Assembly: GCA_951406725.2 (NCBI GenBank)
Contig: OX597818.1
Coordinates: 130,138,001-130,202,000, forward strand
DNA: 64,000 nucleotides
Direction: 5' to 3'
From: Octopus vulgaris
Taxonomy: Eukaryota
Below, piece after piece: positions 4,501 through 46,814 of the stretch. Position 1 is the first letter of the stretch; each line of letters opens with the position of its first letter. The translations under genes were made by a program, and so were the position numbers. Under the pieces are notes generated by a model. It was not told the origin of the DNA and did no database searches. It was given only the letters and a program-made list of their open reading frames with translations.

Positions 4501-4777
4501 ACAAACACACATATACACATGTGCAATTTTATATAGTTATACATAAGTACAAAAGACATATTTATATGCATACACTCACGCATATAGTTATATACTTCAC
4601 ACACATATTATAGATGTATGTGTATTTGATTTTCATAAAATGAAATACAACCTAAATAAAAATAAAAAAATATATAGAAAGCAATAACATAGAATAATGC
4701 TGATTGGATATCTGCAAGGAAGAAAATATTGTCTCCTTGAAAGAAAGGGAACACAAGTGAATAGAGAAAGTTCTTAC

Positions 4778-5008
4778 CGTAGGGCTCTCATCTGTCAAGA
4801 ATATGGGTATATCTTGGGAGATACACTTGGAAAGTTGGCTGGTTGAAGTGGAGGCTTTCACTGTCGATGAATCAGCCAACATGTTAAGTAGTATTAGCTC
4901 AGTTGCAGATAGATGCCACCACCTGCGTGTTGCAATAGCAACCTTTTTGTGAACCGTTACACATCCAAAGGGTGTTTCTGTGGCATCACAAAAAGCATCC
5001 AAGAAGTT
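4778..5008 (-). CDS. FUZ: Internal coding exon of fuzzy planar cell polarity protein (CPLANE subunit, longin-domain region)
   Basis: Acceptor ttgtttgtttacag| and donor |gtaaga flank 231 nt (77 codons); only frame 0 is open. Translation: NFLDAFCDATETPFGCVTVHKKVAIATRRWWHLSATELILLNMLADS...CISQDIPIFLTDESPT. It aligns to human FUZ as I remember it (EALSGFAEAAGTTFVSLVVSGRVVAATEGWWRLGTPEAVLLPWLVGSLPPQTARDYPVYLPHGSPT). Confidence 0.85.
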
Positions 5009-7150
5009 CTGTAAACAAACAAACAAACAAATAAGTAAATAAATAAATAAATGAAAAGAAAAGCAGACAATAGAAAGATGGATAAAAGTCAAGATGGAAA
5101 CACAAATAATAAAGAAGAGAGAGAATTAGCACAGATGGTGTCAGTTCATTGTTAGCCCAACACAACATAGCTGAGTGATGGGCATAGCAAAGTATTGCTG
5201 CGGTTTTAAGAATGCTGTAAATTGTGGTTTTTAATGAAATGCTGAAAAGTCAGTCACACAGAGGAAAAATTCCTCCTTTTACTTGGTTGTTAGTGTTTAC
5301 GGCAGATGCATCTGGAGGAACATGGCTGGATAAATGTGTCAGAAAAAAAGAATATTAGAATATAAAACAAAAAATAAAATAAAATGAGAATTAAAAAAGG
5401 AAACAAAACTAATAAGTAAATCGGTAGATAATAACCTCTTCATGTTTGAGTATTAATAACAAAATGAAATTATTGATGATAAAAAAGCAAAATTGATGTC
5501 GATTTGGAGTGGACTAATCAAATATACCAGACATGGAAATAACGATTTCTTTTGCCTCAGAACAAGATTTTTCCCTTTTCTTTAAAAGGAGTTTGGAACA
5601 CAACTGCTTGAATTGACAAAAGAATGTAACTAAAGTTCATTTTATTAACACTGGAGGTATAGAATCTTTAAAAATTGGCTCATCGGGATTTTATTTCAGA
5701 AAAGTGAGGCACTAAACAAGTGAGTGCCATGAAAAGTATTGTCTGATTCTTTATTGACTAAACCAGGAATTTATATTAAAAATCTTGCATTGAAATTGTG
5801 TTTACATATTCTTTTCAAAAATGTGAATGAACATATTTTCTTCATTTAATAAATGGGAACATCTCAAGAGATAAGGAAATAAAATACGTAAAGTGTTTCA
5901 AAATTATAAAGCTACAAATGGGTGCAGGCTTTACTTTGTTGTGAAAACCACAACCATCCAGTTCCAGATAGAACTTTGTTTATGTACCGTCTACAATAGC
6001 CTCATGTCAAAGCCTTATAGGTAAAATTTGATAGACAGAAACTGGGTGGGTTCATAGATGTATATGTATGTATGTATATACATACATAGATAGGAACATA
6101 CATACGTACATATATATATATATGTCCGTAGAGGATAACAAAAATTACAGTGTTAAATGAAAATATTTGATGCTATTTTGATTACTCTTTGAAAAGATTG
6201 ATAGAACACTAGGGGGTCGATATAATCAACTAAAGTCAGCATGATCTCAGACCAGTAAGCAAAAATAGTAAAGAATAAAAGAAAACTTGAGGATTCATTT
6301 CTGTTTCCTGCTATATTTTCTTGCTGATAAGAGAATCTTTCAAACGAAAGTGAGAAATAATTTCAATATGAATTTGTAAAAAATAGGAAAATTCTAAACA
6401 AAGCTATAAAATAAAGAAATAAATAAATAAAAAAATAAAGCAACCTAATTTTTTTTTCATGGAGGTAGCTGCAAATATAAGGTAGCTTTTATTTCAAAGC
6501 ACACCTGTTTTGTGGACATATCTTTACTTTTTATCAATGAAATGGCTTGAGGTAATACAAATGAAGATGCTACTTTATGTTAGCTATCTGTGAGTCAAGG
6601 AGTTCTGGGTTCAATTCAATGAAAAGTGCATTTAATTTTTTTTACAGATATATGGAAATGCTGATGTTACTTAGATTCAATGGTTAATGGTATTCCATTT
6701 GTGACTGGCCACTTCACTAATTTCTTAATCTAGTATCATAATGTCCAATGTTTCTTTCACTAAAAAAAAGAAAGGTAGGATGTGATTTGAAAGAACTTAG
6801 TTTACTAGCTTAAATTTTTAGCAGATAGAAAGACTGCAGGCCAATAGAATCATTAACAGATGGGACAAAATTCTTAGTGGCACTTTTTCAGGCTCTTTTA
6901 TATTTCAAGTTCATATTCCGTTATGGTTGGCATGGCCTTTCATCCTTTTGGCTGTTGAGAAAAGGGATCGATATACTCAACTAATCCTTTCACTCTAAAA
7001 TTGATGGCCTTATACCAAAATTAGAATTCTCTTTTTTTCTTAGCAGATTGCATGGTAAATTTGACGGCTTAAGACCTTCAGAGTGAAGAAATATGTAACA
7101 GCTGTAATTCACGAATGTACTGAATGACATATGTAAAAACACTTTTTAAC

Positions 7151-40499: not shown

Positions 40500-40955
40500 T
40501 GGTAGAACTAAATATGTTTCTACAAAAGCAGAAATGCACTGAAAGGCTAATAAATCATGCTATAACCAAAGCAAAACTAATTCCAGTCTCTGCTATCAAT
40601 CATCAAATCTCCAAGAAATAATCTTAAAAATTCACAAATCATCAGCAACCAAAGACAACAACAAAATCTCAAAAGACTAACAAATGCAAGATTCACATTA
40701 GAGAAAGAAGTAATAGAGGTAACAACTTGTGGTGACCCTCATTGTAGGACATGTGAAATAATTAAAGAAAGAACAATGTAAAGATTCAAGAATGAGAAGG
40801 AATTGAAACCAAATGGAAACCTGAATTGCAAAATAAAAAATTCTCATCTACTGCCTCATACCCCTGCAGTGCAATGAAAATTACATTGGGGAAACAGGAA
40901 CTAAACTAACCAGCCATGTAGATGTGAATAAACAGCAAACTAAAGATTTATCTCT
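40500..40955 (+). mobile_element. Penelope-like element fragment 1 (linker plus GIY-YIG endonuclease start)
   Basis: Translates ELNMFLQKQ...LINHAITKAK ... RQQQNLKRL ... CGDPHCRTCEII ... NLNCK...LIYCLIPLQCNENYIGETG. Confidence 0.8.
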
Positions 40956-40964
40956 TAGAAATGG

Positions 40965-41400
40965 TCCAAATGCAAAGCTTTACACAACAACCATGAAACT
41001 AATGGTTAACAAATGTGGATGAAAAACTGTGGAACATGCCCCAACCTACTAGAAAGCTCAGAATTCCAATTCAAAGAAGGTGAGAGGTTCACAATTAAGA
41101 CAAACTTCACTTGTGCATCTTAGAATTTAATTTTTGTTATAACTTGTTGAGGTTATGGACATAACTATATAGGACAGACAAGTATGACCCTTAGACAGAT
41201 AACAATACTACATAAGGAACATATCTGTTTCCCAAAGTATTGACAGATATCTTTGAGTTAACACTTAGAGAGTTTTGTGTAAGGAATTTCCAATCAAGTT
41301 TCACAGTTTTCCCCATCTACCAGTGCAAAGAAACAATTTCTGTATAAGAACGTTTAAATAAAGAAAATTTATTTATGCTTAAATATGAATGCATAACCAA
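40965..41400 (+). mobile_element. Penelope-like element fragment 2 (different family, GIY-YIG)
   Basis: Translates KCG..NCGTCPNLLE...FTIKTNFTCAS*NLIFVITC*GYGHNYIGQTSMTLRQ...HKEHI...FTVFPIYQ...RLNKENLF. Confidence 0.8.
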
Positions 41401-45343: not shown

Positions 45344-45431
45344 ACATGTACTTTGTAATCAGAGACACAAATGGAGAAATACATTGATCAGATACAGACA
45401 TATAGATTAAATTTTAAATATGTAAATATAG

Positions 45432-45889
45432 AATGGTTGTATACTGTCAATCTAACAAGAACGTGACAGTAGGGGGTACACCACCGCTGTATAGCCCTAG
45501 GAAGCATCAAACGCCTCCTGATAGCTTTGACACATTTTTTCCCTGTGTCCTTATATACATATACGAAGGGGAGACAAACGCCCCCGGCCGCCGGAACTGC
45601 ATCTAGGGACACCGTGTTTCAGAATCGTTGTCCTTCATCGGCCTAGAGTAGCAGACACCGGTCAGCTGGTTCCGGCGGCCGGGGTGTTTGTCGCCCCTTC
45701 GTATATGTATATAAGGACACAGGGAAAAAATGTGTCAAAGCTATCAGGAGGCGTTCGATGCTGCCTAGGGCTATACAGCGGTGGCGTACCCCCTACTGTC
45801 ACATTCTTGTTAGATTGACAGTATACAACCATTCTATCGCCCCACCACCGTACATGTCTCTACGAGAGATTTAGAAATTCAATATTTCT
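45432..45889. mobile_element. Foldback non-autonomous element (probably Penelope-derived) with ~170-bp arms
   Basis: Arms 45428-45597 and 45669-45837 differ by about 6 substitutions and 1 indel. A 52-bp extension lies on one side only. TSD tatgtaaatatag at 45419-45431 and 45890-45902. Confidence 0.9.
45597..45654 (-). ncRNA. Type I hammerhead ribozyme (variant core CCGAUGA)
   Basis: Minus strand reads CUGC UAC UCUAGG CCGAUGA AGGA CAACGA UUCU GAAA CA CGG UG UC | CCUAGA U GCAG. All three stems pair and the cleavage triplet is GUC. Confidence 0.75.
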
Positions 45890-46814
45890 TATGTAAATAT
45901 AGTTACTGATTAAGTTCTTAGGTTAGGGAGAGTGTGTTGTCAGCAATTGAAAAACTCTGACTTTAAACATGGGTCAGGTATGACTGTGTGGTTACAAAGC
46001 TCACTCGATAACCACGTTGTTCTGGATTTGATCCTGATGCATGATGCCTTAAGTGTCTTCTACAACAGCCTAAAGCAATGCCACACAAGTAAAATTTAGT
46101 GGATGGGAAGTGTATGGATTTTATAGCAGTTCTTTAAATAAACATATTGTTGAAATGATTCGAAAGAAGACAATAAAAAATGTTCTGGTGATAATTGAGT
46201 TAATTTAAGTAGCTTGTAAACCCTTTAACTTCTAGAAAAGCTGAATTGGTAAGAGTGACAGAGATGTCTTGTGAAACTTAGATACAGACCATTACATTCT
46301 GTGAAGGTGTGGTTAAGGTGATGGTTCATCATTATTAGGTCTTGAGTTCCATTCTTGGATCAGACAGTATTTTGTGTCCTTGAGCAAGAAACCTCTTTTC
46401 CCATTGCTCTTGTCCATGTAGCCGAAAATGAGTGTGCTGTAGCTGGGTGGGTGGCTAACTATGTGATAAACTAACATTCTGTTTAGGAAGAGGGAGTCTT
46501 TTACTCTCAGTCACCTAAACATGTCAGAAATCTGCATAATCTTTAGCCTCAAGATTAATTTGGTTTGAGGTAGAATTTATTTCTTTTTTATGTTAGATGG
46601 TATACCGTAAGTTCAAATCCTTCTGAGGTTAACTTTGGATACCTTTTTTTTTTTTCTGGGGCTAATAGAAAAGAATGTAACAGGTGCTTTTATCAACTTT
46701 ACCTTCTCTGTAATTTGTAGCTACATGTCCATGCTAAAAATCAACATTATTACAATAATAGAACCTCTAAGGAAATATAGTTGAGTAGGTTTCCAAGTTG
46801 CACTAAATACAGGG

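Follow-up and report, generated by a model that had tools for sequence, protein, structure and literature searches.

A hammerhead insertion within the fuzzy gene

The window analysed here, i.e. the whole stretch of 64,000 nucleotides from Octopus vulgaris, lies within the gene fuzzy. A mussel fuzzy protein could be placed on six colinear minus-strand exons from 131.87 to 128.90 Mb of contig C5, giving an apparent span of about 3 Mb (G000:C5:128898496-131867375, minus) with exon gaps of 0.48, 1.24, 0.68, 0.005 and 0.56 Mb. The fuzzy exon in the window is 94% identical to an Argonauta protein and was the only match above threshold when 356 filtered minus-strand frames of the window were compared with Pfam. 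The six exons flank an inserted element, whose hammerhead motif is on the same strand as the gene, as an earlier note on this DNA had stated, and within an intron, which that note had considered as a possibility. The element is located between the exons at 131.386 and 130.143 Mb of C5, in an intron region of up to 1.24 Mb; this bound reflects that the exon for fuzzy residues 123-150 was not located.

The insertion consists of two oppositely oriented arms of one repeat unit, bracketed by a target-site duplication (Table 1; coordinates with the prefix m refer to the natural unit L017:1137-1500). The giant hairpin previously described around the motif is present: the inverted repeat measures 157 nt at 96% identity, the full arms are identical at 163 of 169 aligned positions, and the whole window hairpin folds with a z-score of −34. 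Of the two short hairpins in the tail (m243-297), the first keeps its stem, with another loop, in a sister family (family C); the tail of the Neptune-like element described below also has a short hairpin.

The hammerhead motif itself is found at 45597-45654 on the minus strand. Three stems surround the core and stem I is open, which assigns it to type I, and every motif element listed in the earlier note was recovered at its place on this strand, including the predicted cut at 45608/45607. Compared to the strict core CUGANGA...GAAA...UH, the motif has a C at position 4, the remaining core positions being canonical. Stem II was correctly read as AGGA/UUCU for the window copy, but the form typical of the family is AGGA/UCCU (60 of 64 parsed copies, UUCU accounting for 3/64).

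Table 1. Features of the 64-kb window, with positions counted from its first nucleotide
Feature	Position	Strand	Description	Basis
Fuzzy coding exon	4775..5014	-	only one found in the window; 40.6 kb downstream of the element, same strand, same intron region	
Target-site duplication, left copy	45419..45431	+	13 bp; last 4 nt common to E1	
Arm 1	45428..45670	-	unit m1-242; stops at end E1	BLAST to L017:1137-1500, 95.5%
Type I hammerhead motif	45597..45654	-	unit m17-74	sequence; covariation across 13 sister-family hammerheads
Stem I		-	distal CUGC/GCAG; internal loop UAC/U; proximal UCUAGG/CCUAGA	sequence
U1.7	45601	-		sequence
Predicted self-cleavage site	45607..45608	-	after GUC; unit m63/m64	position by hammerhead numbering
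C17	45608	-		sequence
Stem III		-	ACACGGUGU, between GAAA and GUC, palindromic	sequence
Stem II		-	AGGA/CAACGA (6-nt loop)/UUCU, then GAAA	sequence
C-to-U in stem II	45623	-	near-private (G-C to G-U)	frequency 0.03 in aligned copies; 3/64
Core		-	CCGAUGA = C3-C4-G5-A6-U7-G8-A9; C3 at 45641, C4 at 45640	sequence
Core position 4	45640	-	C, family state	403 exact C4 vs 12 U4 copies; 654 C4 cores
Inversion junction	45669..45670	.	2-nt microhomology	overlap of two BLAST segments; sequence
Arm 2, inverted	45669..45892	+	unit m74-297; stops at end E2	BLAST to unit, 94.7%
Tail	45838..45892	+	55 nt (m243-297), at one end only; two short hairpins	sequence; PLE tails in PMC8557442, PMC3846280, PMC11167929
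Target-site duplication, right copy	45890..45902	+	13 bp; first 3 nt common to E2	

Folded alone, the 58-mer is not significantly stable (z −1.32; 21 of 200 shuffles were equally stable). The check proposed earlier, Infernal with the Rfam hammerhead models, returned no match for the window motif, neither at the gathering threshold nor at E-values up to 10. Likewise, scans of six family loci together with the window gave no hammerhead, only hairpin-like miRNA models below threshold. Since sister copies with U at position 4 are missed by the same models, we attribute this result to the models. Because of the non-significant fold and the lack of an Rfam match, the case that the window motif exceeds chance rests on its family. 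A generic hammerhead core pattern matched 3907 times in the genome versus 180 times for the reversed control; about 0.004 matches are expected in 64 kb, and one hammerhead core was found in the window.

The 364-nt unit, its core and its fold

A search of the 2.8-Gb genome (G000) with a 96-nt query yielded 910 first-look candidates, and a second query from another part of the unit gave 1462; in both cases the best 40 scored at 96-100%. The copies resolve into a head-to-tail unit of ~364 nt and differ from the majority base by 2.2% on average, from which we conclude that the family is young. Tandem copies occur at L016, L017, L026, L044, L052 and L059 and reach about 2.8 units at L017. Across 72 family loci, one unit follows another head-to-tail with no shared upstream coding sequence, and sister families that are 70-90% alike show the same arrangement where the flanks are long enough. 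No RT-GIY-YIG frame, as expected of an autonomous Penelope-like element (PLE), was found in or beside the 72 loci, and minus-strand frames over the element gave no Pfam match. Dispersed copies, the lack of a protein-coding frame and target duplications of 11-13 bp are features of non-LTR retrozymes, and judged by them the window motif belongs to such a retrozyme with hundreds of dispersed young copies. The earlier note had proposed a ribozyme-bearing retroelement family tied to PLEs, which agrees with the ~364-nt tandem unit and with the PLE insertion signature reported below; the precise class, a non-LTR retrozyme, had not been named. The hammerhead varies by 1.7% among copies and the rest of the unit by 2.6-3.1%, a comparison that was set aside because 42 of the 72 loci had been fetched by their hammerhead sequence.

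Several further arrangements were observed in the course of this survey. An isolated 67-nt fragment holding only the hammerhead (L111:1525-1590, G000:C30 near 4513903) has C4, C7 and a perfect palindrome of 8 nt; a direct repeat of 13 nt precedes the fragment and recurs about 45 nt after it. The sequence upstream of the hammerhead in some contigs was considered as a partner element and rejected, as it traces to this single genomic locus. A pair of subfamily-B hammerheads spaced 4 kb apart on C29 was considered as a pLTR-ORF-pLTR arrangement, but proved to be a segmental array (L077-L079, G000:C29:20682500-20712200), built from subfamily-B units in alternation with antisense pieces of another retrotransposon frame and a 278-bp tandem repeat. 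By its motif, we take this frame to be that of an RLE-type LINE.

Next, we turn to core position 4. An exact 19-mer occurred 403 times with C4 and 12 times with U4 in the genome (controls: 0), and a looser pattern found at least 654 C4 cores over several subfamilies (control: 1). All 12 U4 matches sit in ordinary copies of the family and may have arisen by CpG decay. By these counts, U4C is the state of the family and not decay. Of the first 30 loci matching the generic pattern, 13 belong to other families; the remainder include U4 sister units (among them L134, L143 and L148) that are 70-90% alike over most of their length, and a U3-A8 core marks a more distant family. A tree was built from 14 units (midpoint root; C4 column included). 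Its seven C4 units group in one clade (96/95), so that a single origin of C4 is likely, with its retention across several subfamilies that differ by up to 17%. We also considered whether C4 is linked to G2.1, but many C4 copies have A2.1, and the link was rejected.

The same searches revealed additional hammerheads. On the minus strand of L097, roughly 550 nt inward of the right end, lies a minimal hammerhead-like motif that lacks stem III and has the core CCGACGA; it is unrelated to the 364-nt unit and possibly represents an independent C4 case, seen once. The distant U3-A8 family is a retrozyme of ~360 nt with a 6-nt palindromic stem III and, in some copies, a CAAAUA loop (L120:437-990, L135, L138, L141, L152), and recurs often in the first 100 generic matches. 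Many other hammerhead families, likewise with a palindromic stem III, are present at L127-L129, L131, L136, L137, L139, L140, L144, L145, L150, L151 and L153.

Of 21 candidate hammerheads, 13 were used to assess conservation of the fold; near-duplicates were excluded, as were copies whose flanks are truncated or rearranged. The structure given in the earlier note was paired in 92.6% of cells versus 78.1% in shuffles, and none of 500 shuffles reached it, although this test is inflated by the relatedness of the 13 sequences. Changes on both sides were found in 12 of 18 pairs, and slid controls fell to 20-51%. The earlier note had asked whether the consensus of the copies has CUGAUGA and covarying stems and had called a C4U mutant a revertant. 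Covarying stems were indeed found, whereas the consensus is not CUGAUGA, and a U at position 4 would depart from what is typical of the family.

A UAC bulge and a CAAAUA loop are features of the Schistosoma hammerhead, and the CAAAUA loop is present in sister family C. Besides the core, the search pattern prescribed the two outermost pairs of stem III; it left stems I and II free, as well as the UA bulge, U1.7 and the final nucleotide of loop II, an A. These last three tertiary positions were invariant in 13/13 hammerheads, which upholds the assignment to type I with Schistosoma-type peripheral features; in the crystal structure of the Schistosoma ribozyme, U1.7 pairs with the A that ends the loop (PMC11875169). 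Positions 10.1-11.1, by contrast, vary freely in the sister families (paired in 7/13) and should not be counted as a departure from consensus; a U-U at this place is known in nature (PMC3088659). Within the C4 lineage, the pair beside the cut covaries. From 18 of 20 loci, 19 cores could be parsed, and U1.1 was present in 16 of the 17 chosen for A2.1, in contrast to the G2.1-C1.1 pair of the main family. Stem I continues as a long helix between the sequences upstream and downstream of the ribozyme; in nine units, compensatory changes affect 18 of its 47 pairs, and the fold of the 364-nt unit reaches a z-score of −6.9. On this comparative evidence, the ribozyme fold is under selection, with compensatory stem changes kept after U4C.

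In every family the 6-10 nt of stem III are palindromic, either perfectly or nearly so. For the family type, the fold of a single hammerhead (−11.6 kcal/mol) lies 5.4 kcal/mol above the minimum of −17.0 kcal/mol, and the probability of stem III is about zero. The double hammerhead, at −36.7 kcal/mol, is close to the cofold minimum of −36.9 kcal/mol, in keeping with the suggestion made earlier that the palindromic stem suits dimers. Stem III is therefore predicted to form only in the dimer, and the C4 ribozyme to cleave slowly and mainly as a dimer. Metazoan type I hammerheads with a short palindromic stem III, and their cleavage as dimers, have been described (PMC4209133, PMC6765202, PMC7229834), and in Xenopus 8 of 9 retrozyme dimers tested did not cleave (bioRxiv 10.64898/2026.07.22.740005). 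On balance, we lean towards an active C4 ribozyme.

The dimer prediction bears on the host gene. The motif lies on the sense strand between colinear fuzzy exons, and it had been suggested that it could cut the fuzzy pre-mRNA, which would lower or reroute expression. Within the window hairpin, the proximal part of stem I is still predicted to form (p 0.82-0.96), but the distal part reaches only 0.07-0.16, stem II about 0.3 and stem III 0.001. The single core in the window leaves no nearby partner for a dimer in cis, the copy is a young ordinary insertion among hundreds, and introns cut by slow hammerheads are still spliced (PMC2995048). An effect of this kind is very unlikely; the window copy, lone and slightly damaged, probably affects the fuzzy pre-mRNA little. 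For a 169-bp duplex within a pre-mRNA, a role as an editing substrate is more plausible than an effect on fuzzy.

Insertion structure and mobilisation

After removal of overlaps, the 72 loci comprise 55 distinct insertions. Both 3' ends point outward in 39/55, which are thus inverted, and 16/55 run in one orientation. The window hairpin, which had been taken as the setting of the ribozyme, is a by-product of integration common to most insertions and not a ribozyme scaffold. The 3' ends fall at two fixed sites 55 nt apart, E1 (m238-244) and E2 (m292-308). Among the 39 inverted insertions, 28 combine E1 with E2 and 11 have one end elsewhere, while pairs of two E1 or two E2 ends are absent (p 3.7e-9 for one end of each kind versus independence); 20 older copies add six E1+E2 insertions and no same-type pair. 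In the literature searched, we found no counted rule of one end each for PLE-type insertions. Most standard ends (66 of 83 at E1 or E2) abut a TA run, and target duplications of 11-13 bp were found at 6 of 19 loci checked, the remainder being short or lying inside microsatellites. The element ends overlap the target by 0-5 nt.

Rare variants are held in common by the arms of one insertion at 3.86/kb, by tandem units at 2.52/kb and by different insertions at 0.23/kb, i.e. 17 times (arms) and 11 times (tandem units) more often than between insertions. This sharing points to one template for the two arms, while gene conversion or a homogeneous source array could also produce it. The 5' ends of the arms spread over the whole unit, only 1 of 104 lying within 5 nt of the predicted cut, which suggests that circles or uncut multimers rather than cut monomers served as templates; a ribozyme without cleavage would fit this distribution equally well. 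The inversion junctions are likewise distributed across the whole unit, a few of them lying in short palindromes near m1-20.

Long near-perfect arms and the few junctions in palindromes could also be explained by self-priming or fold-back, as proposed for PLE inversions (PMC3846280), or by a DNA foldback element or MITE with a hammerhead-like loop. However, the layout is not fixed, with junctions across the unit, 16 of 55 insertions in a single orientation and tandem units in existence, and arms that end at different fixed sites in 28/28 cases are not expected if one arm is copied off the other. We therefore give little credence to this explanation.

PLEs are known to insert with a signature of partial tandems, an inverted copy on the 5' side and a tail confined to one end (PMC8557442, PMC3846280). 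For purified PLE protein, nicking of both target strands and their extension have been reported in vitro, the tail being delimited by the two internal sites at which extension starts; the Anolis PLE showed no strand difference in the start site and no homology at the primer (PMC11167929), whereas the octopus ends overlap their target as given above. A search for GIY-YIG domains in the octopus genome, in which 150 of 6136 candidates were scored, gave at least 148 matches; 16 of the matches listed lie in open frames of 781 aa. These frames encode RT and GIY-YIG and are 95-99% identical to each other. The elements have a cysteine linker, (TA)n ends and two ends about 40 nt apart, L117 having one of each, and by the cysteine-linker motif they appear to be Neptune-like.

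Young intact Neptune-like PLEs are located at L112-L118 (e.g. L115:268-3968, L118:581-4281). They have an overlapping upstream frame of up to 479 aa, of which a 359-aa piece was scanned without a convincing Pfam match. The window itself contains a decayed PLE fragment (40581-41270, plus strand; linker and GIY-YIG region) that is 36-51% identical to the 781-aa protein. The terminal repeat of the Neptune-like element contains a U3-A8 hammerhead-like motif with a weak AU-rich stem I, and it shows no BLAST similarity to the 364-nt unit. The class of the mobiliser, a PLE, is well supported, and the Neptune-like element is only a candidate partner.

These data also bear on the possibility that the unit is a detached pseudo-LTR (pLTR) of an autonomous PLE, with the copies being 5'-truncated stumps. 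Such an origin would fit the ends, tail, inversion and target, which are as in autonomous PLEs, and Xenopus retrozymes are related to pLTRs (bioRxiv 10.64898/2026.07.22.740005); moreover, the GIY-YIG search scored only the fraction of candidates given above. In contrast, none of the 44 PLE (GIY-YIG) loci carries the unit as a terminal repeat by BLAST, the sole match being an unrelated nested retrozyme in L120, and the unit-into-unit arrangement without shared upstream coding sequence holds for the 72 family loci and for the sister families. Taken together, we consider this origin improbable.

With good confidence, we favour the reading that the element is a ~364-nt non-LTR retrozyme, likely copied into AT-rich DNA by the RT and endonuclease of a PLE, whose C4 ribozyme is predicted to be slow and mainly dimeric. 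In the mechanism we propose, tandem copies of the unit would be transcribed, and two neighbouring hammerheads would associate through their palindromic stems III and cleave. This would release RNA of unit length; stem I would keep its two ends together, and they could be ligated to a circle. A dimer of the PLE protein would then bind the E1-E2 region, where the tail hairpin is a candidate protein-binding structure, and nick both target strands about 11-13 nt apart. One strand would prime cDNA at E1 and the other at E2 on the same uncut multimer or circle. The two cDNAs, being of the same polarity, would be unable to anneal and would be joined at a short microhomology. The product would be an inverted repeat, head-to-head, that bears the tail at one of its ends; in the window copy, m242 to m1 would have been joined in this way to m74-297.

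Why C4 has become fixed is a matter of more tentative interpretation. It is possible, if doubtful, that U4C was fixed as a brake, which would keep the ribozyme shut in monomers and circles and let it fire as a dimer or when bound by PLE protein, each inverted insertion then resulting from one protein dimer that primes both strands on one circular RNA. An about equally tentative alternative is that the C4 ribozyme is catalytically dead and that the family spreads via uncut multimers, the fold being kept for recognition by PLE protein or ligase. U4C is reported to lower hammerhead activity considerably in vitro (PMC3088659), the 5' ends show no pile-up at the cut, most Xenopus dimers were inactive, and hammerhead mutants left PLE extension unimpaired in vitro, where uncut RNA was the main substrate (PMC11167929). 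On the other hand, G5, A6, G8, A9, GAAA and C17 are fixed among C4 subfamilies up to 17% apart (partly by the search patterns), in which N7, 10.1, loop II and the stem III palindrome vary, and the 2.1-1.1 pair beside the cut covaries within the C4 lineage. Furthermore, a viroid variant with U4C remains infectious (cited in Perreault 2011, PMC3088659).

Relation to known retrozymes and PLEs

Comparing these results to previous studies, the element passes the sequence tests for a metazoan non-LTR retrozyme, save the strict hammerhead core at position 4. The retrozymes described by Cervera and de la Pena 2020 (PMC7229834) likewise have tandem units of 150-450 bp (350-390 bp in mussel), a type I hammerhead, a GC content under 50%, no ORF and long target duplications, and in axolotl a short stem III needing dimers, as predicted for the octopus unit. 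The octopus unit differs in its fixed C4 and in that most of its copies are dispersed insertions, inverted or as short tandems, that carry PLE tails; the published retrozymes also accumulate as unit-length linear and circular RNA, forms that are predicted for the octopus unit. The main text of that paper, as far as available, does not mention cephalopods. Our literature search found no description of a cephalopod retrozyme and no hammerhead lineage with fixed C4; the PLE-hammerhead survey of Lunse 2017 or the supplement to PMC7229834 may contain accounts relevant to both points, including such variants.

Li, Clavereau and Pollet 2026 (bioRxiv 10.64898/2026.07.22.740005) argue that retrozymes derive from PLEs and are non-autonomous. 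Their elements resemble the octopus unit in PLE co-occurrence, unit size and dispersed monomers and dimers. Their link to PLEs is based on co-occurrence in vertebrates and on pLTR homology, whereas here it is based on the insertion signature, and no homologous pLTR was found. The EN+ PLEs Neptune, Poseidon and Naiad (Craig 2021, PMC8557442; Arkhipova 2013, PMC3846280; Frangieh 2024, PMC11167929) share with the octopus insertions partial tandems, 5' inversion, a tail at one end, microsatellite or AT-rich targets and two internal RT start sites. In contrast to these PLEs, the octopus unit has no coding capacity, its tail measures 55 nt versus 30-40 nt, its hammerhead is of the canonical form with tertiary loops rather than minimal, and one end of each kind was counted in 28/28 cases.

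At the level of the ribozyme, the S. mansoni Sm-alpha hammerhead has the same 6-bp proximal stem I and 4-bp stem II (PMC4209133) and the same unpaired U1.7 and terminal A in loop II (PMC11875169). The window motif differs from it by C4 instead of U4, the loop CAACGA, a weak or unpaired 10.1-11.1 and a stem III that is a 9-nt near-palindrome. The viroid U4C variant cited in PMC3088659 has the same substitution, being weaker in vitro with enough function in vivo, but it is a rare variant, while the octopus lineage, which has at least 654 cores in several subfamilies, shows C4 as its fixed state.

Elements of this kind are already known, and the locus alone is unsurprising. The C4 lineage goes beyond the literature searched in that it is fixed in at least 654 genomic cores and still shows compensatory change, and descriptors demanding CUGANGA would overlook this family. 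With U4, C4 and U3-A8 versions of one homologous unit, a single genome provides a natural series for cleavage assays. The insertion signature is direct evidence for retrozymes riding on PLE enzymes. Coupled priming of both target strands is an open step in PLE integration, and the rule of one end each (28/28 and six older copies) turns the "optional tail" into a statement on this step. If U4C does act as a brake, the family would represent a countable natural model of how PLEs acquire inverted ends and of what the PLE hammerhead is for.
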